DNA of 46,435 nt from Promethearchaeota archaeon. GTDB lineage: Archaea > Asgardarchaeota > Lokiarchaeia > Sigyniarchaeales > SOKP01. The notes below the pieces were generated by a model. The model was not told the origin of the DNA. It ran no database searches and saw only the letters and a program-made list of their open reading frames with translations. The stretch is taken from positions 1-46,435 of the forward strand of contig JBHLOI010000028.1 in assembly GCA_048940645.1 (NCBI GenBank), written 5' to 3'. Position numbers and translations under genes: made by a program. This document shows, one piece after another, positions 6,774-42,946 of this stretch (position 1 is the stretch's first letter; each line of letters begins with the position of its first letter).

Positions 6774-8009
6774 CTAAAAAAAACTTTTAAAAACCTCTCT
6801 TGCTGCACTTTCTCTATGATCTCGTCTTTCATGATTTGAAAGTTTATTTATTAAAGCTTCATTACAAATCTTTTTGCCAATATTAACTTTTGGATTACTT
6901 GCCCAGTTAACATCTAATAAAAGGCAAAAATAATACACGGTACTCTGAATAAAAGCAATTAATTGCCCAATTTTTAAAGCATTTGAAGTTTCTAATGAAA
7001 TTTTCGCTGATGGAACACCTTGTTCTATTAAAGCTTGAAAGGTTGCATCTGCTTGATAGTTTACTATTGATTGTGCTGTTTGTCCATGTATATAATCAAT
7101 ACTAGATTCTAATCTTAAATCTAATAATTCATTTTCCTCAGTCCAAATAATTGGAATTACAATGCCCTTTGTTCCACCAAGAAGATATTCTAATACTGAG
7201 TGTTGGCATAAAGGTGCCGATTGATAGGCTCCCATAAAACCTCGCTCGCTCTTTCCACTACTTTCGGAAATTTCTTGTACAAAAAGAGCTACAGATCCTT
7301 CAAGATTTATGGAGTATGGCATAGAGAATACAATCTTATATCCTTTATTATATAAATTGAATAAGAAAGCGGAAAACTCCGTGCTAGGATTTATATCATA
7401 GTTCATGAACAAATCGTAACCTTCTTCTAAGCCTTTTATAAAGTTATTAATATCAATACCAGCTAGATATGCTGGGACGATAGCAACGTTAGATATAGAT
7501 GCAGCAAATCTTCCTGGTAAATCAGGAACTTCAAGAAGTGGACAATTAATCTTTTTTAAAATCTTATTCATAGTACCTTTAGATGATAAACCTAAGAAAT
7601 TATATCCTTTTTTTATAAATGTCCCAATAGTGGAATTAATATCTAGAGTTTCACCTCCTCGGGATATTGGAATAACTATTGAATCTTTTGGTGTTGTACT
7701 TTCTAAACATAACTTTAACTCTACTGCTCGAGAGCTAGTGATAGGATATATTTTTTTTTGGGATAAATGTGTTAATGCTAATAATGTTTGTATAGATCCT
7801 CCTGTACCTAAAACAATAATATTCTGAAGATTATCGATACTAAGAGAATCAACTACTGACTTAATATTATCCAGATTAATAAAAGTGTTAGTATCTACGA
7901 AAAAAGGAGAATCCCAATTCTCTTTTCTTTCAGCAATAATATTGATTATTTCTCCTATTTGTATATTTTTAAGTTTTGGATAATACTCTAATTCAAGATC
8001 TTTACCCAT
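6774..8009 (-). CDS. Double-SIS phosphosugar isomerase, divergent glucose-6-phosphate isomerase-like
   Basis: GTGGS, SRGGET, PGRF, QEISESSGK, QHS and PKVNIGK match the order of PGI motifs. Confidence 0.75.
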   Translation of the reverse strand: MGKDLELEYYPKLKNIQIGEIINIIAERKENWDSPFFVDTNTFINLDNIKSVVDSLSIDNLQNIIVLGTGGSIQTLLALTHLSQKKIYPITSSRAVELKLCLESTTPKDSIVIPISRGGETLDINSTIGTFIKKGYNFLGLSSKGTMNKILKKINCPLLEVPDLPGRFAASISNVAIVPAYLAGIDINNFIKGLEEGYDLFMNYDINPSTEFSAFLFNLYNKGYKIVFSMPYSINLEGSVALFVQEISESSGKSERGFMGAYQSAPLCQHSVLEYLLGGTKGIVIPIIWTEENELLDLRLESSIDYIHGQTAQSIVNYQADATFQALIEQGVPSAKISLETSNALKIGQLIAFIQSTVYYFCLLLDVNWASNPKVNIGKKICNEALINKLSNHERRDHRESAAREVFKSFF

Positions 8010-8222: not shown

Positions 8223-9497
8223 ATGGCAAAAGCTAGCGAAATAAAAAATGAGAGTAATGGTGGGATTGGCGAAGCTTATTATTGTATAGAATGTAAAAGA
8301 AATCATACTAAAGGAAAGATTTATAAAGAACATCTTCAATTTGCAAAAACTGAAAAAGATGGAGAAGAAATTACAGAAGATGATGAATTAGAATTGAATG
8401 AAAATGATTATAGTGAACAAGAAGATATAGATTTGGAAGAAGAAATAGAAGATACAGAATTGGAAGAAGAAATAGAAGATACAGAATTGGAAGAAGAATT
8501 TGAGGATGATATTGATTCTGATCTTGAAGAAGAAAATTTTAATGATGATGCTCAAATTTGTGTTGAAGCTGTAAAAAAGCTCCCGGGAGTGGGAGATGCA
8601 ACACTTAAAAAGCTAATTAAAGCAGGTTTTAATAGCCTTGAATCTATAGCATATACACCTCCTAGTGTTATTCAAGAAGAATCTGGATTGGGAGACAAAA
8701 CTACAGCAAAATTAATCAAAGCATCAATGGAAAAATTAAATATTGGATTTAAATCTGCTGAAGATGTGTGGGAACATAGGAAAAATATTGCTCGGATTTC
8801 AACAGGGAGTCAAGAACTTGATGATTTATTAGGAGGAGGGCTAGAAACAGGGTGTGTAACAGAATTTTTTGGAGAATTTAGAACTGGCAAAACTCAAATT
8901 GGCCATCAATTATGTGTGAATGCTCAGTTATCTAGAGAAAAAGGAGGCCTTGAAGGTAATGCTTTATATATTGATACAGAAGGCACTTTTAGACCAGAAA
9001 GAATAATTCAAATGTCTGAAGGTCTTGATCTTGATCATAAGAGAGTATTAAAAAATATTATCTTTGGTCGAGCTTACAATTCAGATCATCAAATTCTCTT
9101 GATCAAAGAAGCTGCAAATCTGATTAAAGATAAAAATATCAAAGTAATAGTAGTTGATTCATTAATTGGGCATTTTAGAAGTGAATATATAGGGAGAGGC
9201 ACCCTAGCAAACCGTCAACAATTAATTAATTCACATCTACATGACTTATTAAGATTAGCTGATATTTATCCAGAACTGGGAATAGTTGTTACAAACCAAG
9301 TTCAATCTAAACCAGATGTTTTCTATGGAAATCCCTTACGAGCGGCAGGTGGCAACGTAGTCGCACATGGTTCCACTATCAGAGTCTATTTAAGGAAAGG
9401 GAAGGGAGAACAAAGAATAGCCAAAATAGTTGATGCTCCTCATCTTCCTGAAGGAGAAGCTGTATTTAGTATTACAGAAAACGGTATATCAGACTAA
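8223..9497 (+). CDS. radA: DNA repair and recombination protein RadA with an N-terminal zinc-finger/acidic extension
   Basis: HhH LPGVG, FxxA motif GFKSA, Walker [21 protein letters not shown], Walker [18 protein letters not shown]. Confidence 0.96.
8433..8498 (+). repeat. 27-bp in-frame tandem repeat (TTGGAAGAAGAAATAGAAGATACAGAA), 2 exact copies plus a 12-bp partial
   Basis: Copies at 8433-8459 and 8460-8486, partial at 8487-8498. Encodes LEEEIEDTE repeats in the RadA linker. Confidence 0.95.
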
Positions 9498-9590: not shown

Positions 9591-12500
9591 TTATTTCAAT
9601 TTTTCATATTCATTTGCTTTGTTAGTCAATCTTTTTACCTCTTTTGTCATATTAGTAACCCCTAATTTAAATATTTCAGATGCAATTTTAGAGGCATGCT
9701 TGTATTTCTGAGCCGCTTCGAGATAATTTTTCTTTTTCACTGCTAGTTTAGCTTCATTTTCAAATTGCTTCTTCTTAGTTGTTAAATCCTCTATCTTGGT
9801 TTTACGAGTTAATTCTTCTAACTGCATAAATTCTTTAGATAACTCCCAATTAGAAGCGATCAAAGCGGCCTCTTGGAAGATTTCAACGGATTTTTGATAA
9901 TTTTTCTTACTTTTTGCCTTTTTAGCCCGATTAAATAACTCCTTTATCCCGCTTTTAGCTTCTTTCTTATTGGCGATCTCAATAGTTCCAATTTTTGATT
10001 TGATAGGAGCAGAAACAATTTTCTGACGCTCAGTAATACTTGAAAGATAAGCTTCTCTTTCTACAGGACCCAACTGTGCCAAATCGTTTACTAACTTTTG
10101 TTTTTCTTCAGGTGAGAGTTTAGTTAATTGTGAAACCTTCTGATTAATTAGGTTTATCTCTTGTTGTGAAATTGGTTGTGCTTCAAGTGCGGAAATTTCA
10201 ATAGGAATTAACATTTTCTTATCCCTTAATTCTTTAATTCCCATAAAAATTTCAGCAGTATCTTTATTTGTTCTTTCTGAAGCCTCTTTTAATAATGTAG
10301 CTATAAAGAAGAATTGCCTATCAGCTTCTTCACAACAAGAATGAGCTATTTTTAATACCTCTCTTGAATGGGGATTCTTTAGCTCCTTGATACTCGAAAA
10401 ATCATATGATATTTGATGTGGTAAAATTATAGAAGTACTTAATAAATCGTCCACAATTTGACCAGAATTTCTGAAGTGAGCTAATTGGCCTCTCCAATTA
10501 GGTAAAACATCTTTATATGTTTCTTCATATACATTAATAAATTCCCTTAGGTTTCTTCGAAGGATTAATGAGGCTTTTTTAGTGAGAACTAATGCGATTC
10601 TGATATATTCACCATCTGCCAAAAGTAGCATTTTATCTCCATATGAAATTTCATTTAAAGCTTCTTGAGCAACCATTTCTCTACCAAATGAAGAAACAGC
10701 CGTCAAAAATCCACCTATCAATTCTGGGTCAATTTGTTCTGATCCATATGATTTAAAGTATACACATGTTCCAGTCTCTTTATATAAAACTAGAATGTGT
10801 TCTAGATTGATTGCATCGTCAAAAATTGTTTTAACTTCATTTAGAATTCGAGCTTTCTCTCTCTTTTTTGGAGCGATAACACCTCGCTGAATAGCTACAG
10901 CTCCAAGGATGCCAACTACGACAATTGCGGCTATTATTATGTAGGGCAGAAATTCTTTTAAATTTAGACCAGAAGGGGGTATTATAGTAATATCTGAAAT
11001 TTCAAGAGTAAATTCTTGATGATTATATGCACTACTTAATTGGATTGTTAAATTAAATGTACTGGTATCACTATAAGTTGGTATTGTAAATTCAATTTCT
11101 CCAGTACTATTAGTGGGATCTTCCTGAGATGTGCCAGCTATACCATTATAGTATGGAATTATTGTTATAGTTGAATCATTAATTGGTAACCAAACTGAAC
11201 CATTGAAATATTCTGCCTTGACGATAATTGTGAATGGAAGTCCTGCATTTACACTATCAGGCACTACAGCTGTTAAATTTGCTTGATATTTTCCTATCAC
11301 CGTTAAATTAAACATAAAATAAACTTCTTCATAATTAAGTTTGTTAACAGTAATATTTACTTCGTAATTTCCTATTGTTAAAGCTGGATTTGAGGTGGTA
11401 ATAAATCCCCTATGATTTTGGGATACGATCTGAAACGAGTTAGCAAGTGTACCATTATCTCCTGTATTAAGATTTCTATAGTAGACCGTATAAGTATCTG
11501 CTAAAGTAGATACTAATTTATTATTATTCTCCAAATCAGTTATATTTAAATCAACAGTAATATCACTTCCTTCAAAAATTGTGTAATTATAACCCGCTCC
11601 AATAGATTCTATTTGTCCTCCAGGATCAGAAACCGATTTTAAATCGATATCCGAATAATTGCCTCTAAGATAAAATGTAAAGTAGGACAAATCATAGCCA
11701 TAATTCGGAAACTTCGAAGCATTCACTTCTAAGGTATACCAACCGTAATTTTTATTTGTGAGACTAATATTTAGGTCATACCACCCGTTAGTTAGATTAA
11801 CTAATTCCCATCCAGGAGTCCAAATGATCCCTGTAGAATTATCTCTTACAACAATATTACTTTTAGTAAGTATTTCAATACCCCGATCGTTCGTTGTGTC
11901 ATTAAAGTAAAAATTAAAGGTTTGGTTTAATCCAGAATTCCTTGGTATCTCAGTAATCCATGTAGTACTTTCTATACGTGTTTGAATTATTTGTATATCA
12001 ACATTTAATTGAACTATTTGGGTTTCTGCACCAATTTTAGATACATTAAAAGTAAAGGATTGACTACCAACATCTACATCATCAGTATCTAACTGCATGG
12101 TATAAGTTCCATTTCCATAATCTTTTAGAAAAGGTTCAAAATTATAATCATCACCAATCACTTCCCAAGATGCTCCAATAATATAATTTAAATCTGTATC
12201 ATAATAATCAAAGGTATAAGACACATTTTGTCCTCTGATAATGCTACCTAAATTCGGGGAATTACTGGGATAAATATCCGTAGTAATTTGTCTATGAAAC
12301 GTATATATATCTGTTAGATTTACATAAAATGTTTCTGAGGCTGAGATTATAACATCAACAAATCCATAACTGGGGAAATCAGGATCAGCTACTCTTACAG
12401 TTAAATTATACCTTCCATTTCCAATGTATTGAACAGCCGTTGAATTGTAAGTAGAGCCTCCATCAAGACTGTATTCAACGGTTGCATCAGCAATCCCTTG

Positions 12501-14318
12501 ACTTAGTATGATGTCATTGTATTCTATAGTAATATTGAAATTCTCTCCTTTCAAAAATATTGAATTTTCAGGAGGACTAACAATACTTAAAGAAGTATCA
12601 CCTACAATAGTAAAATATGAATCTATAAAACCCGCTGCTGTATCATTATTCCAAAAGATTTGAGCTTTAAATACTCCATATTGAGTTGCATTATCAGATA
12701 TATCCCAATTATATACAAATAATTCAGTACCTGGAGATAGAGATACGTCTACTAAATTTGTATGGTTTAAATAGCGAGGAATTGAGCTATAAACGCTTAA
12801 ATTTAAAATGCCATTGTTTACAAATTCACTGAAACTTGTGTTGAATTCAATAACGTTTGAGAAATTAGCTATGTTTGTGGCAACGCCCCCGACATATGTA
12901 TTAATAGAACTAAGTAAATTTGTTGAGTTTGCTATCAAATACCAATTACTCCCATTACCAGCATTTAAAACTTGAACAAAACGATAACCATCTTTGATGA
13001 AATCTTTTTTAATGTCTATGCCTGGAATTTCAGTTTCATTAAATACTTTTATGGTATTTAAGATCCAAGTTGATGGAATTGTAAAGTTAATAGTGTTGAA
13101 ATCTGTAATTCGTGAATCAAAAAAGTTTAATCCTCCAGTTGCTGAAACATTCCACTGTACGTTATCACCAGAATTTAATATCTCAAAACTTGAATCAGCT
13201 AATAAGTTTGATTTCGTATAATTTATTTGAACATTAGTAACATCACAAGATACGTTCCACCATCCAGCTGATATTGTAAAATTCAACTCATTTGATGAAC
13301 TCGAATATGAATCAATCGGATGCCAATATCCTGATCCGTTAACATTACTATACCCCGTAACTTTTGTATCATTTATAGCTAATCCTATATGCTCTGGATT
13401 TGGAATGTTATTGATTGGACTTAAATCCATTTCTAACCTAAAATCAACTGTAGCGGAACCGCTTACCAGATTTGACGTTAAAACCCAACCACCACTATAA
13501 GAATAGCTATAAGTTTCATCTATCCCATCACCAAAAGCAATATCATCATCAACATAATACCAAATAGTATCCGCACCAGGTGCTCCACCATCAAATAAAC
13601 CAATAAACCAAGTTTTATTAAATGTGATTGAATTATTTAGAAATTGGTGGACATTATTAACAGAGAAAGTTCCTGTTGTAGAAGCTGGTACATTAAACGT
13701 ACCTAATGCAGTAAGATAGTCCGTGGATGACGTACCATAAGGCATGTTTTTATTACCATCCCATGTTGAATTATATAATACAACAGTTACGGTTGATTGA
13801 GCAGTTGCGTGAACATTTCTGACGTAAAAAGAAACGTTTTCTAAATATCCATCACCTAAAACTCGAAAAGAAGTAGCTGAGGGATTAGCATTATCAAAGT
13901 TATCAGCATTATCCCAAGCATCATCTTCAACTATCAATGTCTTATTAGGAGCGTAGATATTGTCAATAGATACATTAATAAATGATGTTGAATACCCATT
14001 AAAATCGGGAAATGGTTCAGAAAAGCGATTTGAGATATCTAAATCAGTGAATTGCTTAGTAGTAGTATCAATTAAAGATTGGTGTAGTGTAACATTCATT
14101 TGTTCACCAGTTCCATCAAAATCTAAAGATTCAGCTAATTTTGGTAATATTTCAATGCAATCGTTTTCCTCTCTGAAAACATCATTTTCGTCTGTATATA
14201 ACTTATTATTTAAACCTGAAACTAGAATATTTTTCACTAAAGTTGGCGTAACCATTCCTAAAAACAAGAGAAGAACTACTACTATCCTTTTAGTTTTATT
14301 AAAATTAGATTTTTTCAT
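9591..14318 (-). CDS. Large type I membrane protein: signal peptide, ~1100-aa beta-rich glycosylated ectodomain, one TM helix, cytoplasmic longin-like + wHTH + tandem MIT/TPR-like domains
   Basis: MKKSNFNKTKRIVVVLLLFLG signal (ATG at 14318; the track uses TTG at 14327). Many N-x-S/T sequons and GNGxY-type Ig-like strands. TM LPYIIIAAIVVVGILGAVAI followed by KKREK. Longin-like LEHILVLYKETG...IDPELIGGFLTAVSSFGREM. Confidence 0.8.
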   Translation of the reverse strand: MKKSNFNKTKRIVVVLLLFLGMVTPTLVKNILVSGLNNKLYTDENDVFREENDCIEILPKLAESLDFDGTGEQMNVTLHQSLIDTTTKQFTDLDISNRFSEPFPDFNGYSTSFINVSIDNIYAPNKTLIVEDDAWDNADNFDNANPSATSFRVLGDGYLENVSFYVRNVHATAQSTVTVVLYNSTWDGNKNMPYGTSSTDYLTALGTFNVPASTTGTFSVNNVHQFLNNSITFNKTWFIGLFDGGAPGADTIWYYVDDDIAFGDGIDETYSYSYSGGWVLTSNLVSGSATVDFRLEMDLSPINNIPNPEHIGLAINDTKVTGYSNVNGSGYWHPIDSYSSSSNELNFTISAGWWNVSCDVTNVQINYTKSNLLADSSFEILNSGDNVQWNVSATGGLNFFDSRITDFNTINFTIPSTWILNTIKVFNETEIPGIDIKKDFIKDGYRFVQVLNAGNGSNWYLIANSTNLLSSINTYVGGVATNIANFSNVIEFNTSFSEFVNNGILNLSVYSSIPRYLNHTNLVDVSLSPGTELFVYNWDISDNATQYGVFKAQIFWNNDTAAGFIDSYFTIVGDTSLSIVSPPENSIFLKGENFNITIEYNDIILSQGIADATVEYSLDGGSTYNSTAVQYIGNGRYNLTVRVADPDFPSYGFVDVIISASETFYVNLTDIYTFHRQITTDIYPSNSPNLGSIIRGQNVSYTFDYYDTDLNYIIGASWEVIGDDYNFEPFLKDYGNGTYTMQLDTDDVDVGSQSFTFNVSKIGAETQIVQLNVDIQIIQTRIESTTWITEIPRNSGLNQTFNFYFNDTTNDRGIEILTKSNIVVRDNSTGIIWTPGWELVNLTNGWYDLNISLTNKNYGWYTLEVNASKFPNYGYDLSYFTFYLRGNYSDIDLKSVSDPGGQIESIGAGYNYTIFEGSDITVDLNITDLENNNKLVSTLADTYTVYYRNLNTGDNGTLANSFQIVSQNHRGFITTSNPALTIGNYEVNITVNKLNYEEVYFMFNLTVIGKYQANLTAVVPDSVNAGLPFTIIVKAEYFNGSVWLPINDSTITIIPYYNGIAGTSQEDPTNSTGEIEFTIPTYSDTSTFNLTIQLSSAYNHQEFTLEISDITIIPPSGLNLKEFLPYIIIAAIVVVGILGAVAIQRGVIAPKKREKARILNEVKTIFDDAINLEHILVLYKETGTCVYFKSYGSEQIDPELIGGFLTAVSSFGREMVAQEALNEISYGDKMLLLADGEYIRIALVLTKKASLILRRNLREFINVYEETYKDVLPNWRGQLAHFRNSGQIVDDLLSTSIILPHQISYDFSSIKELKNPHSREVLKIAHSCCEEADRQFFFIATLLKEASERTNKDTAEIFMGIKELRDKKMLIPIEISALEAQPISQQEINLINQKVSQLTKLSPEEKQKLVNDLAQLGPVEREAYLSSITERQKIVSAPIKSKIGTIEIANKKEAKSGIKELFNRAKKAKSKKNYQKSVEIFQEAALIASNWELSKEFMQLEELTRKTKIEDLTTKKKQFENEAKLAVKKKNYLEAAQKYKHASKIASEIFKLGVTNMTKEVKRLTNKANEYEKLK

Positions 14319-14545
14319 GCTTATCAAATGTTAATTACTAATTTTTTAGTCTAGCGCAAACTATAAATATTAAATTTATAATCGTGCAAGATCAATTTAA
14401 AATTTCTTATATTTGCATATTTTCTTATTGAATATAGCATTAGGATATTATCTCAATTAATTTTCTACATGCAAAAGTACAAATTTGTAAATTTTGGTTA
14501 ACGAAAAAATGAATCTAATTTACCATAAAATAATTGAATAGTTTT

Positions 14546-15378: not shown

Positions 15379-16461
15379 ATGACTAAAGAAGAAAATATTG
15401 GAATTTTATTAAAAAATTTTGTAGAATCCCAAAAGGAAATAGAAATCGCTTTTGTATATTCACATCAAGGACTTCTATTATCTAAATATGGTAATATAGA
15501 AAAAAGAATGAATAATGAACAAGAAGTCGATGAAATCTATGGTGCATTGACAGCTCTAGTTGAAAACTTATTAGATAAAATATCTTCAGAATATAAGATA
15601 GGATTTTATGGGAGCGGTTCATTTGAAACCACAGATCATAGGATTGTTTATCTTGAGGCAGGTCCAGAAGCAATTTTACTTTTAATTTGTAGCTATAAGA
15701 TAGATTTAAATAACTTATTTCCAATTGCTTATCTTGTTGTTGAGAAGATTGCTCAATTGTTAGAAGATAGTTTTGATTTTAACTATAATACTTTAGAAAT
15801 TCCAGATTTGAAAATTCATGAAAATATCTCTGTGAGTTTAGATATGTATACTTTAACAGAATCAAGTAACTTAGTTGATGGAGTAAAAGCAGTCCATCAA
15901 ATGAAAAAGGAAGAGAATGTAGAAAAACTATTTAAACTTATTGTATTGGGTTCCAAAGCAGTCGGAAAGACTACTCTTATTAATAGATTTTTGAAAAAAG
16001 AAGTCATTATAGATTATCGTCCTACTTTAGGTATTTCTATCTCAACACAGAAATATTTTGTCCAAGGATTTAAGCAAGATGTTGTAAAGTTTCTTATCTA
16101 TGATTTTGCTGGACAAGAATTCTTTAAACGTGTTAGACATGAATATTATAAAGGAGCTAAATGCGCTTTTGTAGTATATGATGTTACTCGACGTGAAACT
16201 TTTGAAGATGCGTTAAATTTTTGGTTAAAAGATGCTCGGGAGGAATTAGGTAATTTACCAATCGTACTTATAGCGAATAAAATAGATTTAGAGGAACAGC
16301 GAATAATCTCCAAAGAAGAAGGTTTAAATAAAGCTCACGAACTTAAATGTTCTTTTATTGAGACATCCGCATTACATAACATTAACGTTCAAGATACCTT
16401 TAAATTAGTAGGAATAGGGCTCTTCTTCAAATATATTGAAGAAAATAGAATAACTCACTAA
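15379..16461 (+). CDS. Roadblock/LC7 (MglB-like) domain fused to a Rab-like small GTPase
   Basis: N-terminal roadblock pattern (IEIAFVYSHQGLLL...GALTALV...IVYLEAGPEAILLLI). G1 GSKAVGKT, G2 YRPTLG, G3 DFAGQE, G4 NKID, G5 ETSA. Confidence 0.88.
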   Translation: MTKEENIGILLKNFVESQKEIEIAFVYSHQGLLLSKYGNIEKRMNNEQEVDEIYGALTALVENLLDKISSEYKIGFYGSGSFETTDHRIVYLEAGPEAILLLICSYKIDLNNLFPIAYLVVEKIAQLLEDSFDFNYNTLEIPDLKIHENISVSLDMYTLTESSNLVDGVKAVHQMKKEENVEKLFKLIVLGSKAVGKTTLINRFLKKEVIIDYRPTLGISISTQKYFVQGFKQDVVKFLIYDFAGQEFFKRVRHEYYKGAKCAFVVYDVTRRETFEDALNFWLKDAREELGNLPIVLIANKIDLEEQRIISKEEGLNKAHELKCSFIETSALHNINVQDTFKLVGIGLFFKYIEENRITH

Positions 16462-19597: not shown

Positions 19598-20158
19598 ATG
19601 AGACCTTCAAGAGTTTTCAGATGGATTGTTCGAACGTTTTTGTTTTTACTCACTTTATCTATGACAGTAGTCTCAATTTTGGGAGCTCTATCTGCTGTGA
19701 TGATCCTTGGGAATATGAATGAAAATATAAAAATTCCGGCAAGCCCACCAAGTACTAATTTTAACATTACAAATCCAAGTAGTATGAACATTACTATTCC
19801 ATTTAATATTACCAACTCTGGATATTTTGATTTAACAAATCTACTTATTGATATTAAAATTTCTATGACTTTTGGAAATTCTTCTACCCCCACCAACGAA
19901 ACTACTAATACAGTTATTTTTGATAAAGCCCAAACTTTTCCAAACATTATGAGAGGTCAAACTTATTCAGGAGCATTTTTTGGCAATAGTTCAGATTTTA
20001 TAGTGGCTAATTTTCCAAATGCTACAACTGAAATTGATTGGTTCAGAACACCTGTTTTAGAATTTTATGGAAATTTCACAATAAGTGCTTATTATTCTCT
20101 AGATTTAATTGCTTTTACTTTTGGGATAAATAATGTTACACTAGGAACATTTCCATAA
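19598..20158 (+). CDS. Membrane-anchored glycoprotein with a LEA_2/WHy-like beta domain
   Basis: One N-terminal TM helix, ITIPFNITNSGYFDL motif, dense N-x-S/T sequons. Confidence 0.6.
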   Translation: MRPSRVFRWIVRTFLFLLTLSMTVVSILGALSAVMILGNMNENIKIPASPPSTNFNITNPSSMNITIPFNITNSGYFDLTNLLIDIKISMTFGNSSTPTNETTNTVIFDKAQTFPNIMRGQTYSGAFFGNSSDFIVANFPNATTEIDWFRTPVLEFYGNFTISAYYSLDLIAFTFGINNVTLGTFP

Positions 20159-20174: not shown

Positions 20175-20687
20175 ATGGGAGCAGGAAAGAATTTAATTAA
20201 GGGTATTATTTTTATGGGCATCTATATAGTAATTACAATGGTGATACCTTATTTCACATTTACTTGGATTAAAGATTTGAGTGATCTAGGCATTCCAATA
20301 GTACTTGAACAGCAGGAGTATGAATCTATTATTTTTTGGATTTCTGCTTTTGGATTATTAATTAGCTCCTTGGCATTTTTCTCCTATTCCTCCCCCAAAC
20401 AATCAATACGTAAGGGAGTATTTGCATTAATTCAGATATTAGTAAATAGCCTGTATATATGGAGCTATAAGTTTTCTGGAGCAGCTGATATTTTATTCCA
20501 ATTTAGTGCCTCCCAACATATTACTGGATACCTTTTCTTAAATTTCCAAAACATGATTATGGTATATCTAGGGATATACTTTCTTACTATTCTTTTAAAA
20601 GGCTATGATTTAGCTGACTTCATTATTAATAGAGAAAAAATTCGTGAAAAAAGATATGGAATTAGCGGAGGTTATGATAGAGAATGA
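20175..20687 (+). CDS. Hypothetical 4-TM membrane protein
   Basis: Four hydrophobic segments, strong SD, ATGA overlap with the next gene. Confidence 0.75.
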   Translation: MGAGKNLIKGIIFMGIYIVITMVIPYFTFTWIKDLSDLGIPIVLEQQEYESIIFWISAFGLLISSLAFFSYSSPKQSIRKGVFALIQILVNSLYIWSYKFSGAADILFQFSASQHITGYLFLNFQNMIMVYLGIYFLTILLKGYDLADFIINREKIREKRYGISGGYDRE

Positions 20688-33344: not shown

Positions 33345-33965
33345 TTATTCCAATACAACAAAATTAGAATTTTGTTTTTTAAGCATTAAATTACTTAAGT
33401 CTTTAAATACTTCTACTACATTATAATTTTCTAAAGCTGATGTTTTATAGAATCTATCTAATTTCTTTTCTTTTACAAATTGAATAATTGAATTATCCTC
33501 AACTCTTTCTTCTTTAGGCGTATTTCCTACTAGATCGAATTTACTACCCACTAAAATTTTAGGGATATAATAACCGCTAGCATGTTCTATTAACTGATCA
33601 TACCAAAAATCTAGTTGGGAAAAGGTTTTTTTATTGATTAAATCAAATACTAATAAAGCACCATTGGCTCCTTCTAAAAATTTTGGAAGTAGAGGTTTAA
33701 ATCTTTCCTGACCACCAAAATCAAAAATGGAATTAACAATATAACTCTCACCCAATATATTAATTTGGTTTTTCTGTTTAATTTTCAAATTTAGCGAGTG
33801 AAAATTAATTCCAATTGTAAGTGATGTATCGAAATTGAAAGAATTAAAACAAAAACGATTAAATAAACAAGTCTTTCCAACACTCTGAGCCCCAATTATG
33901 ACTGTTTTAAAAGTGTAAAATATTCTTTTTTCTTGCTCAATAGCTCTTTTCAATTCAAAAACCAA
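33345..33965 (-). CDS. Rab-like small GTPase
   Basis: G1 GAQSVGKT, G2 LTIG, G3 DFGGQERF, G4 SKFD, G5 KTSA. Confidence 0.92.
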   Translation of the reverse strand: MVFELKRAIEQEKRIFYTFKTVIIGAQSVGKTCLFNRFCFNSFNFDTSLTIGINFHSLNLKIKQKNQINILGESYIVNSIFDFGGQERFKPLLPKFLEGANGALLVFDLINKKTFSQLDFWYDQLIEHASGYYIPKILVGSKFDLVGNTPKEERVEDNSIIQFVKEKKLDRFYKTSALENYNVVEVFKDLSNLMLKKQNSNFVVLE

Positions 33966-39934: not shown

Positions 39935-40219
39935 ATGGACTTCTTCTTAAAAAATTTAAAAGAAACTCTTGATGCTATTAATAAATTAATAGATAATAAT
40001 GTCACTGTAGTAAATACTAAGAGAATCAGAAGATGCAATAACATAAAATCTTCAAATCGATCAAAAATAAACTTTATATGGCGATCATTAGATTATCTTG
40101 AAAAAGAGGGCATTTTAGAGGTAAATGGTTCTTTTAGTCCAAGAACCTATAAAATAAAATTAAACGAAAGAATAAATGTTGATAAACTAATAACTCAAAT
40201 TAAAAAAGAACGACTATAA
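39935..40219 (+). CDS. Small basic winged-helix-like hypothetical protein
   Basis: IWRSLDYLEKEGILEV...PRTYKI resembles a recognition helix plus wing. 6-bp convergent overlap with the next gene. Confidence 0.6.
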   Translation: MDFFLKNLKETLDAINKLIDNNVTVVNTKRIRRCNNIKSSNRSKINFIWRSLDYLEKEGILEVNGSFSPRTYKIKLNERINVDKLITQIKKERL

Positions 40220-42946
40220 TAATTTTAATTGTTCTAATAAACTTTCAAGTTTTTTCTTACTTTCATCATGACTTGGATTAGTTATTAATCTTTTTTGGTA
40301 AAAGAGAATGCTTCCATATTTTAATTCTATATCGTTGAATAGTTTGATCCAAGATGTAAATTGTTTTAAATTTTCTTGTACTTCTGGGTCATCCTCAAAT
40401 AATTTGATATCTTCTTTTTTATCTGTTGAGGAAATCATCATCTTATATTTTTTCATCGAGTATCCCTGTTTTTTTAACAATTGAATATTTACATTCCGTA
40501 TAAAGGCTTCTAATCCACTTCTCCATCTAACATACTGTTCATTTATTCTATCAATTGATTCTTGAATCTCTTTTATCTCATACGGAAAAATTGTTTCATT
40601 GCTTTTTGTTAAAATCTTTTTAATTTTATGGAACTCCAAATTAAAAATATAATTATAACTATCTACAGTTTTTTCAAACTGTTTTAACATAATATTATAA
40701 TCTTGGGCGAATAATACTTCATAACTTGAGAATGTGAGGTTTTTTTCATCATAACTTCCTTTTAAAATTTTTTTATTTAACATTTTTTCAAGAATTGCAC
40801 GTAATAATTCAATATCTTTCTCTGATAATTCTTTACCATAGAACAGATCATGAAAAGAAAATATAGAGCTATTTTGGAGTATTAGTTTTTCAATACCTTT
40901 TTGGGTATAAAATTTTTTCTCTTCATCATCCTTATAAAAAATTCCCTTAATTTCTCCATCATTCTGCATTTCTTTTAACAAACTTTCAACTAAGCTTGAA
41001 GTTATATCAATATCTCCAAGTAAAATGTGATCTTGAGTTTTCGATTTATTTATTAATTCAGTTCTTATTTCTTTTTCAGCTTCTTTTATTTTATTTTCAT
41101 TGAAAAGTAAAATATCCCCTTTTTTTAAATATTTAACTCCTAGATCATCTATAAATTCAAAAAATAATCTATCAGACATTCCTGTTTTTTCAAGATATTC
41201 AATGATAACAATTTTGTCTTGTTGTTTTATATCTTCACCAATAAGTTTGAGATTTTCATCAATTTTTGCTAATATAATATCCTTTTGAATGTTTAATTCT
41301 TCTGTTATTTTTAATATTTGACTTTCTTTTTCTTTATTATCAGTTAGCTTATTGATTTTCTCAATTTTATCATTTAAAAATTTTGAATAATAAAATATAT
41401 TTTTTTCTTTGTTAAAAATGCCACTTCTGTTATCGATATAATGATCTAAAACATCAACTAATAAAATTTTATTAATTCCTAATTTTTCAGAAATTTTAGG
41501 TATTGATAAATATCCTAAAATTTTGGAATTTTCAATTTCATTCTTAATTTTCATTAATCCTAAATTCGTTAATAAAATTGTTCCCTTACGATATTTTGTC
41601 AAATAATCCTTTGGAAGATTTCTTATTAATTTAATGAAACTTTTTTCAGTTAATAATTCACGGTAAAGTTTTATATCCACAATACTATCTTTTGAAGCTT
41701 TAGAATTAATTTCTTGCTTTATTGTTTTTAAAGAATAAAATGCTGTATTATTTTTAGCTAATAATAATTTTTGGTTATTAGAGTTAGAAATATATTTAAT
41801 AATTTTTTTTATCAATCCGAATGGCAAGTAGTTAAATTGTTCAAGGATAATATTTCCTTGATTCTTTATACTTGTTTCAAGCTCGCTTTTTAAATAACTA
41901 TAAGGATAAAAGTATCCTAACTCTGAAAAATAACCATTTATTTGCTTTAACTTTAATAAGGTTTTAACTATATATTTTAATTCTATTTCGGATTCGATGA
42001 TACTAAGAAAGTCTTTAATTGATTGTATTGAAATTCTTTTTTCTTGCTCGAAAAAGTTAATTAATTTTTGTTTTTCAATTTCATAAAAATATATTTCATT
42101 GGTTTCTTTATTTTTGGTGTAAAAATAAATCTCTTCCTTCCCAAAACGAGAATTTTTAATTTTTTCTATGAACTCCTTTAATTGAATATTAATTTGCCTA
42201 CTTAAACTTGTAAAATTGAATTTTTTTATGATTAATCGATTATTAATTAATTCATAAATTTCTTTAATACTTAGAGCTTCAAGGTTGAGATTTTTAAAAG
42301 GCCCATAAAATTTTTTACAGAGTCCTACTAATACATTATGAAAGATTGATTCTTTTTTTCCGGAAAATAATGTAGATATTTTATGTACTCCTTTCCTAAA
42401 CCAAAATATCTCATTAAAATAAAAATTATCGCATCCACTAAGAAATTCTAAAAGCGAATAGAGATTAACTTCATTTTGTTCCTCTAAAAGAGCCCTTAAT
42501 ATATTTTCTTTATAATTACATAGTATTTTAGGTTTAATTTTTACGATCTCTTGAAGAAAGTAATAAGCATTCTCTTTTATATCTGGATTTTTATCTTTTA
42601 AAGCTAGAATAAAATCTAATAAATAATTATTAATATATTCTGGATTTGCAATCATTGCAAAACCTAATATAATTACGGCATTTAATCTTAATTTTAATTC
42701 AGGAGAATTTTGAAACTCTTGAACCTTTTCAATTATACCTTTAGATATAAATTCAAAATTCTCTTCTGCTAAAACACTTAGAATATAAGTAACTGGAACA
42801 TCCAAACCATCCTCATTTAAAAGACTTTTTAATTCCTCAACGAGTTTTAATACTTTCTCAACTTTATTTTTGCTTAAATATTTATTTAATCTCCCAACGA
42901 TACTCTCAAGGATATCATTATCTTTAAATTCTTCCAGATTAAACAT
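40214..42946 (-). CDS. HEAT-repeat plus tandem PCI-like winged-helix protein (UFL1/DDRGK1-like)
   Basis: N-terminal HEAT-like helices (LKDKNPDIKENAYYFL). Recurrent G-x-F...F/Y-Y wing motifs: INGYFSELGYFY, SGIFNKEKNIFYY, IKGIFYKDDEEKKFY, LKGSYDEKNLTF. Confidence 0.65.
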   Translation of the reverse strand: MFNLEEFKDNDILESIVGRLNKYLSKNKVEKVLKLVEELKSLLNEDGLDVPVTYILSVLAEENFEFISKGIIEKVQEFQNSPELKLRLNAVIILGFAMIANPEYINNYLLDFILALKDKNPDIKENAYYFLQEIVKIKPKILCNYKENILRALLEEQNEVNLYSLLEFLSGCDNFYFNEIFWFRKGVHKISTLFSGKKESIFHNVLVGLCKKFYGPFKNLNLEALSIKEIYELINNRLIIKKFNFTSLSRQINIQLKEFIEKIKNSRFGKEEIYFYTKNKETNEIYFYEIEKQKLINFFEQEKRISIQSIKDFLSIIESEIELKYIVKTLLKLKQINGYFSELGYFYPYSYLKSELETSIKNQGNIILEQFNYLPFGLIKKIIKYISNSNNQKLLLAKNNTAFYSLKTIKQEINSKASKDSIVDIKLYRELLTEKSFIKLIRNLPKDYLTKYRKGTILLTNLGLMKIKNEIENSKILGYLSIPKISEKLGINKILLVDVLDHYIDNRSGIFNKEKNIFYYSKFLNDKIEKINKLTDNKEKESQILKITEELNIQKDIILAKIDENLKLIGEDIKQQDKIVIIEYLEKTGMSDRLFFEFIDDLGVKYLKKGDILLFNENKIKEAEKEIRTELINKSKTQDHILLGDIDITSSLVESLLKEMQNDGEIKGIFYKDDEEKKFYTQKGIEKLILQNSSIFSFHDLFYGKELSEKDIELLRAILEKMLNKKILKGSYDEKNLTFSSYEVLFAQDYNIMLKQFEKTVDSYNYIFNLEFHKIKKILTKSNETIFPYEIKEIQESIDRINEQYVRWRSGLEAFIRNVNIQLLKKQGYSMKKYKMMISSTDKKEDIKLFEDDPEVQENLKQFTSWIKLFNDIELKYGSILFYQKRLITNPSHDESKKKLESLLEQLKLL

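Follow-up and report, generated by a model that had tools for sequence, protein, structure and literature searches.

What kind of protein places a longin domain directly beneath the plasma membrane of an archaeon, and what might such a domain do there? Longin and roadblock domains are, together with small GTPases, among the most expanded eukaryote-like families in Asgard archaea. Eukaryotes use the longin fold to control small GTPases, and the fold also serves, in coat subunits and SNAREs, functions that do not involve GTPases. The question is raised by a gene of a Lokiarchaeial (Promethearchaeia-type) archaeon, lying in a window of 46,435 nucleotides, the whole stretch of DNA analysed. Its product is a predicted N-glycosylated single-pass surface protein, and a preliminary description proposed that it couples events at the cell surface to GTPase regulation. 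Here, we show the anatomy of this protein, the folds of its tail and the distribution of its relatives. The receptor architecture is real, conserved and without annotation, and the protein belongs to a large family of modular receptors that spans the Asgard phylum.

Membrane topology and ectodomain

The whole ORF (9591..14327, minus strand; stop codon at 9591–9593) comprises 1578 aa when counted from the TTG at 14327, the numbering used throughout. The ATG at 14318 (1575 aa) is the likely start; it was the one used in the preliminary description, and it agrees with the ESM Atlas record, whose first residue is residue 4. A hydropathy scan of the whole ORF (Kyte-Doolittle, 19-residue windows, threshold 1.6) finds only two segments above threshold, aa 12–37 and aa 1120–1153. 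Hydropathy and sequence together define a signal-peptide-like N-terminus or signal anchor at aa 4–35 (14223..14318, minus strand), where a basic n-region (KK, K, KR) is followed by the hydrophobic run IVVVLLLFLGMV. The second segment holds a single transmembrane (TM) helix (FLPY...AVAI, aa 1126–1146, 10890..10952, minus strand; hydropathy peak 2.71). Directly after it come the basic stop-transfer QRGVIAPKKREKAR and a juxtamembrane helix, helix H2-15 of the tail model (aa 1147–1172, 10812..10889, minus strand). One TM helix with a basic stop-transfer behind it had been proposed at this position, and the scan bears this out. By heuristic, the signal-like N-terminal segment, the one TM helix, the positive-inside charge and the asymmetry of NxS/T sequons, 47 in the ectodomain versus 1 in the cytoplasmic tail, support the type I (N-out) topology proposed earlier and point to a predicted glycoprotein.

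The ectodomain (aa 36–1125, 10953..14222, minus strand) is fast-evolving and, as had been noted, has a high content of Asn (11.0%), Thr (9.8%) and Ser (9.2%) and many sequons, its 47 comparing with 22.2 ± 3.9 (maximum 34) in 1000 composition-preserving shuffles. Its roughly 1090 residues are probably beta-rich with Ig-like modules, and beta-sandwich or Ig-like modules are the likely content of its C-terminal half. Sub-threshold Pfam matches are to Big_7, MG4 and Ribophorin_II_2nd; the MG4 match occurs in 3 of 16 aligned family sequences, the studied protein counted, with a best E of 1e-6. Self-BLAST of the ectodomain reveals no internal repeats, and Pfam searches of it reveal no recognisable ligand-binding family. 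A large, sequon-dense, fast-evolving ectodomain of this kind would also suit a structural anchor, in which a surface component (sheath, adhesin or matrix) is tied by the longin, winged-helix and TPR parts of the tail to a cytoplasmic scaffold, for example cytoskeleton-associated proteins or longin/roadblock oligomers, with no GTPase switch. We consider this unlikely, if well short of negligible, and return to it below.

The cytoplasmic tail

The structure model of the tail (pLDDT 92, pTM 0.82) contains a longin domain at aa 1173–1300 (10428..10811, minus strand), a five-stranded antiparallel sheet with the order beta-beta-alpha-beta-beta-beta-alpha-alpha and a core without an N-terminal helix. 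Roadblock/LC7 domains carry an additional helix, packed against the sheet at the N-terminus (alpha-beta-beta-alpha-beta-beta-beta); in the tail model a helix (tail residues 2–15) does precede the sheet, yet it falls outside nearly all structural alignments. The longin-like unit that the preliminary description placed directly after the TM helix is, by tail model and Foldseek comparison, a genuine longin fold. The motifs it listed lie where it put them: LEHILVLYKETG at aa 1175–1186, EFINVYEETY at 1262–1271, FFFIATLLKE at 1339–1348 and IKELRDKKMLIP at 1364–1375. The best fold matches include AP sigma, COPI zeta and delta, and the longins of Sec22b, VAMP7 and Ykt6; LAMTOR and SRX chains are also among the matches, the LAMTOR chains scoring below the longins in Foldseek. 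The Pfam longin models PF13774 and PF19036 do not match the studied protein at E ≤ 10. Two paralogues found with a longin-domain HMM, C37 (E 3.8e-9) and C88 (E 2.3e-11), pass PF19036 at 29.5–30.3 bits (gathering cut-off 26.1 bits), so that longin-family homology is supported transitively, through such paralogues only.

A winged-helix domain follows at aa 1301–1378 (10194..10427, minus strand), consisting of a three-helix bundle and then a beta-hairpin wing, which substantiates the wHTH-like unit described earlier at this place. Could the protein then be a membrane-tethered transcription regulator, a one-component system of the ToxR/CadC type with a DNA-binding winged helix and a substrate-sensing ectodomain? 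Some family members match GntR/DeoR-type HTH models, and four paralogues, all on contig C105, have sulfatase, transporter and oxidoreductase genes between them. However, each HTH Pfam match comes from one of 48 members and may fall outside the cassette, and the neighbours of the studied gene share no metabolic theme. The winged helix itself is near-neutral (pI 6.3), its third helix, TAEIFMGIKELRD, is poor in basic residues, and its best structural matches include protein- or peptide-binding winged helices. We regard a DNA-binding role as very improbable.

Beyond the winged helix lie a three-helix linker without assignable family (aa 1379–1443, 9999..10193, minus strand; tail model) and a beta-hairpin leading into a Lys-rich, TPR-like helical repeat tail (aa 1444–1578, 9594..9998, minus strand; pI 9.8). 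A profile of this region (A5) matches consensus TPR proteins at E 2.2e-9 and 2.3e-9, and the single-sequence match to Pfam TPR_2 is 18 bits, under the cut-off of 27. TPR repeats and a non-basic winged helix are generic protein-binding modules, which a structural anchor could use equally well.

It is also conceivable, if improbable, that the cassette serves sorting or membrane remodelling, marking a membrane protein as cargo or as recruiter of ESCRT or coat-like complexes. The fold matches listed above suggest an analogy to the longin subunits of AP and COPI coats and to longin SNAREs. In the available portion of a preprint (Makarova et al. 2024, PMC11188069), Asgard ESCRT-linked multidomain proteins join longin, TPR, Ig-like and HTH/PCI parts, a repertoire like that of the studied protein, to Vps28-C; those proteins are defined there by Vps28-C or a steadiness-box, whereas the studied protein has no VPS28 match. 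Pfam VPS28 (PF03997) matches neither its linker nor any other part of it; the sole match in the genome is C123:2453-2725 (26.7 bits), and BLAST of the studied protein against that ORF returns nothing. MIT (PF04212) scores 13.4 bits at the C-terminus and 18.2 bits in the paralogue C48, both far below the cut-off of 30, and weak MIT-like matches occur in 3 of 48 family members. With a broad profile, MIT chains of the PDB appear at E 0.11–7, but they vanish with a focused tail profile, which gives TPR instead. Nor is there a SNARE motif, and the TM helix comes before the longin domain, not after it as in longin SNAREs.

Conservation and family distribution

Full-length orthologues are present in five related genomes (39–59% identity), and a sixth locus, L025, encodes a 954-aa relative with 31% identity across 670 aligned residues; the gene architecture is therefore not due to chance. 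Among orthologues, identity is 65–82% in the longin domain versus 29–51% in the ectodomain, which indicates stronger constraint on the tail.

The longin and winged-helix pair retrieves 1349 cluster representatives at E ≤ 1e-3 and 431 at E ≤ 1e-10, and the cassette occurs in 109 of 121 sampled Asgard genomes, with named members in Promethearchaeota, Hodarchaeota, Odinarchaeia and Helarchaeota. The winged helix is present in 140 of the 150 best relatives, and 117 of these 150 have a TM helix within 80 aa upstream of the longin domain, at a spacing of 21–47 aa (median 34); 105 of the 117 are single-pass. What is conserved is thus an inner cassette of juxtamembrane helix, longin domain and winged helix, which lies a short and constant distance from the membrane; the helical linker and TPR repeats that come after it are seen in the orthologue group of the studied protein. 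The outer parts differ among relatives and include an FG-GAP propeller, Big_1 domains, a NosD-type beta-helix and a polytopic membrane domain. Strict conservation of the cassette and of its membrane spacing beneath such diverse domains, polytopic ones included, fits a shared output module better than a structural anchor.

In the host genome, the longin-domain HMM finds 36 ORFs, 13 of them membrane-anchored. Together with the TM helices just upstream in most of the best relatives, this overturns, for Asgard archaea, the earlier premise that longins do not sit on large membrane proteins. Several longin paralogues stand in tandem, an arrangement that is common in surface-protein families and would be expected of anchors also. 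Contig C105 carries four paralogues interspersed with sulfatase, alkyl-sulfatase, TauE, MFS and molybdopterin-oxidoreductase genes. Databases annotate the family only as hypothetical or Ig-like proteins. This family of longin-tailed membrane proteins is large and undescribed; in the literature searched, as far as the portions available extend, we did not find the architecture of ectodomain, TM helix, juxtamembrane longin and winged helix described.

A possible link to small GTPases

Among the 36 longin ORFs of the host are one that fuses a longin to an Arf/Roc-like GTPase (E 2.4e-9; Pfam Arf 56.9 bits) and another that fuses it to a P-loop domain (E 9e-12). Pfam Fuz_longin_1 (PF19036), the model for the Rab-GEF longin of Mon1, Fuzzy and HPS1, matches eight places in the genome, six of them within the 36 ORFs; four of the eight are above the cut-off, two of these within the 36. 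Such fusions and matches within the same family count toward a GTPase link, and the fusions speak against an anchor without a switch. The available part of one study (PMC10933270) presents roadblock/longin dimers as conserved GTPase platforms and notes longin-GTPase fusions in Asgard archaea.

Genomic context does not add to this. At 36 receptor-type loci in other genomes within the phylum, GTPase genes show no enrichment (within 3 kb at 3 loci, within 5 kb at 5), and in the host genome, which contains roughly 63 GTPase ORFs, a GTPase gene lies near 3 of 13 membrane-anchored longin ORFs, against a background of 354 of 2767 ORFs (12.8%). The sole recurrent neighbour of receptor loci is another receptor paralogue. 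An adjoining roadblock-like-GTPase gene is kept in four of the five related loci that have flank on that side; these loci are close relatives only, and the region is syntenic throughout. This lack of association is what an anchor would predict. According to the available part of a second study (PMC12290439), GAP-type longins are defined by a GP motif that closes the beta1-beta2 loop. That motif is absent here: among 48 sequences of the studied family, 42 keep a Gly before beta-2, but 32 have T, V or I in the next column, where Pro falls outside the top three residues. In beta-5, 35 of the 48 sequences share an Arg, a candidate counterpart of the catalytic arginine finger of GAP-type longins. 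Pfam NPR2/NPRL2 (PF06218) has no match at E ≤ 1 anywhere in the host genome (89.6% complete). The lack of GTPase enrichment, the missing GP motif, the coat and SNARE longins as best matches and the lack of a direct Pfam longin match all count against a GTPase platform.

Comparison with known longin systems

Longin SNAREs (Sec22b, VAMP7, Ykt6) are tail-anchored and run from longin through SNARE heptads to a C-terminal TM helix, with no ectodomain; the studied protein runs from ectodomain through TM helix to longin, followed by winged helix and TPR, at 5–11% identity. Longin SNARE identity is ruled out, since the longin domain comes after the TM helix and the protein ends in soluble TPR repeats. 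As a working analogy, Ragulator/LAMTOR and SRX-SRbeta offer a membrane-held roadblock or longin platform on which a small GTPase is positioned. In Ragulator, membrane attachment goes through a separate subunit, LAMTOR1, by a lipid anchor, and SRX binds a TM-anchored GTPase, whereas here the platform is itself part of a transmembrane protein and the GTPase partner is putative. The first longin of Mon1, Fuzzy and HPS1 (PF19036) is a Rab-GEF platform; in contrast to these proteins, ours has no direct PF19036 match, is not tri-longin, and no Ccz1/Inturned-type partner was found for it.

GAP-type longins (FLCN, SMCR8, C9orf72, NPRL2) likewise place a small C-terminal domain after the longin, but the studied protein has neither a GP motif before beta-2 nor a DENN domain. 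Membership of that class by its motif is rejected, the Gly being followed by T, V or I. GATOR1/SEA-complex chains give long, low-TM Foldseek alignments (E 3e-3 to 1e-2, TM about 0.2). Asgard NPRL2-like longins fused to signal-transduction domains were reported by Liu et al. Other Asgard proteins with longin or roadblock domains, among them fusions of a longin to a GTPase and the Lokiarchaeal Roadblock-Longin protein (PDB 8yqg), are described, in the portions of the sources available, as soluble or GTPase-fused.

Proposed mechanism and significance

Our preferred reading, held tentatively and at somewhat less than an even chance, is that of a glycosylated surface receptor whose longin-winged-helix cassette docks or regulates a cytoplasmic partner, most likely a small GTPase or a roadblock-GTPase fusion. 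The ectodomain would recognise a ligand or surface outside the cell. Close to the membrane, the longin domain would probably pair with another longin or with a roadblock domain and form, at the inner membrane face, a docking or regulatory platform for the cytoplasmic partner, most likely an Arf/Rag/Rab-like small GTPase or a roadblock-GTPase fusion, and the non-basic winged helix and TPR repeats would supply extra protein-binding surfaces. Both the small-GTPase coupling and the direction in which signals would pass are inferred; relevance to protrusions or partner contact, suggested earlier, is speculation. It is possible, though doubtful, that the family as a whole is a receptor system of the Asgard archaea's own, in which dozens of interchangeable ectodomains and polytopic sensors feed one membrane-proximal longin-winged-helix platform that recruits or regulates small GTPases.

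In this family a longin platform sits at a fixed depth beneath the plasma membrane, directly linked to extracellular or polytopic domains that vary from member to member, and this offers a concrete and testable entry point. The well-folded cytoplasmic cassette, of about 220–420 aa, may serve as bait for GTPases or scaffolds linked to the Asgard cell surface. Should the partner prove not to be a GTPase, the family would still be a major class of Asgard surface proteins; if it is one, the pathway would be the first from receptor to GTPase to be proposed in an archaeon. Finally, if the broader receptor system exists, it would represent a prokaryotic forerunner of membrane-anchored longin/roadblock-GTPase signalling (Ragulator-Rag, SR, TRAPP/Mon1-type GEFs), and would connect surface contact or nutrient sensing to cytoskeletal and membrane remodelling in the lineage ancestral to eukaryotes.

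Receptor gene, topology and surroundings

The receptor is encoded by an uninterrupted reading frame on the minus strand, running from 14327 to 9591 in a window whose G+C content is ~30%. Initiation at the TTG codon gives a protein of 1578 aa; an alternative ATG lies three codons in, at 14318, and is the start both in the matching ESM Atlas record and in the preliminary description of this region. The protein is strongly hydrophobic in only two places, aa 12-37 and aa 1120-1153. The first follows a basic N-terminus and is signal-like, either a putative signal peptide, as proposed earlier, or a signal anchor. The second includes FLPYIIIAAIVVVGILGAVAI (aa 1126-1146, window 10952-10890), with QRGVIAPKKREKAR on the C-terminal side. 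Between them lie 1090 residues rich in Asn (11.0%), Thr (9.8%) and Ser (9.2%), which contain 47 NxS/T sequons, as compared to 22.2±3.9 (maximum 34) in 1000 composition-preserving shuffles; a single sequon occurs on the 432-residue cytoplasmic side. Three features, namely the signal-like N-terminus, a positive-inside charge and the skew of sequons toward one side, agree on a predicted topology in which the large domain is extracellular and the C-terminal 430 residues are in the cytoplasm. These are heuristics, and they concur with the transmembrane (TM) helix and large outer domain of the preliminary description.

Neighbors of the receptor gene encode RadA, an ATP-grasp protein, a roadblock-like–Rab-like GTPase fusion and a P-type ATPase, and the nearest named relatives of the receptor come from Promethearchaeota/Lokiarchaeia MAGs. 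The RadA/Rad51 protein (8223-9497, plus strand) has an unusual ~110-aa N-terminal extension preceding its HhH and ATPase domains, made up of a CxxC...H stretch and then a long acidic Glu/Asp-rich repeat. Elsewhere in the window, the sole match of a 910-aa ORF (40214-42946, minus strand) is a sub-threshold one to Cnd1, a condensin HEAT-repeat family (25.0 bits), and ORFs 6774-8009, 19598-20158 and 20175-20687 match no Pfam family.

A predicted longin domain beneath the membrane

The cytoplasmic tail has no significant Pfam match. AlphaFold2, given a 48-sequence alignment, models residues 1160-1578 as a well-folded four-part cassette (mean pLDDT 92, pTM 0.82). After a juxtamembrane helix, the first unit of the model runs beta-beta-alpha-beta-beta-beta-alpha-alpha. 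In a Foldseek search, a check that the preliminary description had proposed, longin-fold chains dominate (among them AP2 sigma, COPI zeta, Fuzzy, VAMP7, SEDL and Mon1) and LAMTOR roadblocks rank lower; for AP2 sigma 6uri_S, the TM-score on target is 0.64, with an rmsd of 3.0. Structural matches of the longin domain score 11.8 for Sec22b (1ifq_B; rmsd 3.1 over 123/128 residues), 11.1 for Fuzzy (9rs8_A), 11.1 for the longin domain of a Lokiarchaeal Roadblock-Longin protein (8yqg_B; 131 aligned), about 11 for AP sigma chains, and about 10 for TRAPP and SRX longins. Every one of these matches covers model residues 14-141, corresponding to aa 1173-1300 and window 10428-10811, which is almost exactly where a longin-like unit had been claimed. 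Since the alignments begin past the juxtamembrane helix, the modeled fold is probably that of a longin rather than a roadblock.

Homology to a recognized longin family is supported transitively, without a direct match. An HMM of the receptor longin domain picks out 36 ORFs of the genome from which the window comes. Small stand-alone proteins among them, on contigs C37 (29.5-30.3 bits) and C88 (29.7 bits in the genome-wide search), exceed the cut-off (26.1) of Pfam Fuz_longin_1, which models the first longin domain of Mon1/Fuzzy/HPS1. This Pfam model matches eight places in the genome, six of them within the 36 ORFs. Among 48 sequences, the signature of the receptor longin family, D-P-x-L-I-S/G-G-F-L-x-A-x-x-S-F, occupies the first helix and the loops that flank it; signature positions include K24 (40/48), G27 (42/48), G80 (47/48), R84 (35/48) and E109 (46/48). 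A conserved Arg lies in beta-5, at aa 1243.

The wHTH-like unit noted earlier after the longin domain is indeed modeled as a winged helix when taken on its own (pLDDT 86); Foldseek by itself returned no match for it at E<=1e-3. With a pI of 6.3 and a third helix poor in basic residues, the unit would be an unlikely DNA binder. It is highly improbable that the receptor is a membrane-tethered DNA-binding regulator. The three-helix linker that follows could be assigned to no family. The C-terminal 135 residues, rich in Lys (pI 9.8), match consensus TPR proteins with E 2.2e-9 when a focused nine-sequence profile is used. This profile gave no MIT domain, for which only sub-threshold matches had been seen, and we dropped that assignment.

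We rejected a Vps28 C-terminal domain in the tail, a lead taken from PMC11188069, as PF03997 matches only one ORF in this genome, C123:392-2758 (locus L026), and a BLAST comparison between that ORF and the tail found nothing below E 0.15. It is improbable, albeit less so than the DNA-binding regulator, that the receptor serves as a sorting or ESCRT-type adaptor. The C123 ORF encodes a soluble protein of 788 aa that has several zinc-ribbon-like clusters of Cys and the genome's sole Pfam match to the VPS28 C-terminal domain (26.7 bits). It probably belongs to the multidomain ESCRT-linked proteins of Makarova et al.

A large family of receptors

Of the 36 ORFs, thirteen encode membrane-anchored proteins, eight single-pass and five polytopic. 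The premise of the preliminary description that longins are absent from large receptors therefore fails in Asgard archaea, while holding for eukaryotes. TM-bearing longins of Lokiarchaeota may, reportedly, have been described by Klinger et al. in 2016. Two soluble paralogs of ~455 aa carry the entire longin–winged helix–linker–TPR tail (E 3e-20 over tail residues 10-389); both, C48:6631-8010 (L004) and C113:13627-14988 (L007), have a Cys-rich, zinc-ribbon-like N-terminus. Three proteins (C69:3951-6191, C19:36015-37646 and C15:8213-9361) are polytopic, with ~7-11 TM segments by hydropathy and a longin domain at the end; apart from one weak MFS match, their membrane parts have no Pfam identity. 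Four paralogous single-pass longin proteins of ~750 aa are encoded at C105:3151-19390 (L027, L028). Their winged helix is visible in BLAST/HMMER alignments, and the winged-helix HMM matched just one of the four. These genes alternate with a sulfatase gene and an alkyl sulfatase gene, and with others encoding a TauE sulfite exporter, an MFS transporter and a molybdopterin oxidoreductase, so that the region looks like an organosulfate-utilization locus with receptors of its own.

Beyond this genome, a full HMMER scan with the 216-aa longin and winged-helix piece places the receptor in a very large family: 1349 cluster representatives match at E<=1e-3, of which 431 reach E<=1e-10 and 84 reach E<=1e-30. 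Among the best 150 of the 1349, a hydrophobic TM-like segment lies no more than 80 residues upstream of the longin domain in 117; 14 have at least 100 residues upstream without such a segment, and 19 are too truncated for judgment. The 117 are single-pass in 105 cases, N-terminal segment aside, and their TM-to-longin distance is tightly confined (21-47 residues, median 34). The winged helix is present in 140 of the best 150, immediately after the longin domain in 134; nine of the ten lacking a match end too early. At least one cassette match (E<=1e-5) occurs in 109 of 121 genomes sampled from the same phylum, and a single genome may hold as many as 23. The named members belong to Promethearchaeota, Hodarchaeota, Odinarchaeia and Helarchaeota and are annotated throughout as hypothetical or Ig-like. 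The ESM Atlas cluster nearest the tail has 354 members, 99% of them archaeal, and no Pfam family.

The ectodomain has no Pfam match over threshold, its profile matches nothing in the PDB at E<=0.1, and self-BLAST detects no internal repeats. Its nearest ESM Atlas clusters are lectin-like/Big (score 0.84), which is a lead only. Ectodomains vary across the family: aligned relatives of this protein show sporadic Pfam matches to MG4, Big_7 and Invasin_D3, two relatives have FG-GAP repeats and Big_1 as ectodomain, and the paralog on contig C92 has a NosD/beta-helix one. Among five full-length orthologs, identity is 65-82% in the longin domain and 29-51% in the ectodomain. By sequence, then, the pattern is one of a constant output module below a diversifying input module.

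Longin expansion in Asgard archaea and longin-GTPase fusions are already known from earlier work (PMC4917890, PMC10933270, Liu et al. preprint). The Liu et al. preprint also reports NPRL2-like longins fused to two-component signaling domains, and Makarova et al. (PMC11188069) describe Asgard proteins in which Vps28-C is joined to longin, TPR, Ig-like and HTH/PCI domains. Full-text literature searches, covering running text as distinct from figures and asCOG tables, did not find the order ectodomain, TM segment, juxtamembrane longin and winged helix as a large single-pass receptor family. The domains are known; the arrangement and its scale are new.

Possible link to small GTPases

In the window, the divergent partner of the ATP-grasp gene upstream of the receptor (15379-16461, plus strand) encodes a 360-aa fusion with a C-terminal Rab/Ras-like GTPase (Pfam Ras, 144 bits); its N-terminal ~140 aa appear roadblock-like by eye and do not match Pfam Robl_LC7. 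This gene is retained beside the receptor in four of five relatives with sufficient flank, which carries little weight because those genomes are syntenic across the whole region. The second GTPase named in the preliminary description (33345-33965, minus strand; 206 aa, stand-alone, Ras/Rab-like, Pfam Ras 115.7 bits) adjoins a polyprenyl synthetase gene, and we saw no link between it and the receptor. On contig C48, 215 bp separate a stand-alone longin gene (2263-2730) from a small GTPase gene (1530-2048).

This genome has about 63 small-GTPase ORFs. Linkage was assessed more broadly with one Rab-like query at E<=1e-5, which divergent GTPases may escape. In other genomes, GTPase genes lie within 3 kb of receptor-type members at 3/36 loci and within 5 kb at 5/36, showing no enrichment; the set comprised 37 regions minus one (L069) that held no longin ORF under the ORF caller used. 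In this genome, a GTPase gene lies within 5 kb of 3/13 membrane-anchored members and 8/35 family ORFs, versus 354/2767 ORFs overall. The sole recurrent neighbor family at receptor loci is another receptor paralog (7 loci). Within the reach of this query, we therefore rejected a GTPase operon partner. The missing linkage is, however, weak evidence, because Asgard GTPase genes, according to PMC10933270, are as a rule not found in one operon with roadblock/longin genes. It is also conceivable, if rather unlikely, that the receptor is a passive structural anchor.

An NPRL2 reading was rejected: the long Foldseek alignments to GATOR1/SEA chains have TM ~0.2 and rmsd 18-30, the NPR2 model (PF06218) has no match in this genome, and the receptor longin family lacks the GP motif, described in PMC12290439 as a mark of GAP-type longins. 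Given the last two results, the receptor longin, should it regulate a GTPase, would more likely be an anchor or GEF-type platform than an FLCN-type GAP.

The anatomy shown by sequence and model is that of a predicted glycosylated, variable exterior with a conserved longin–winged helix cassette (aa 1147-1381) close beneath the membrane. We tentatively favor a reading in which this cassette would be a platform that docks a small GTPase or a roadblock/longin partner there, for three reasons. Roadblock/longin dimers are, according to PMC10933270, conserved platforms for GTPases. In this genome, fusions join members of the longin HMM family to GTPase domains: of C122:3384-4271 and C60:20468-21352 (L014, L018), one carries an Arf/Roc-like GTPase, and the other a divergent P-loop NTPase. 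Finally, Rab-GEF longins of the Mon1/Fuzzy type are relatives of this family.
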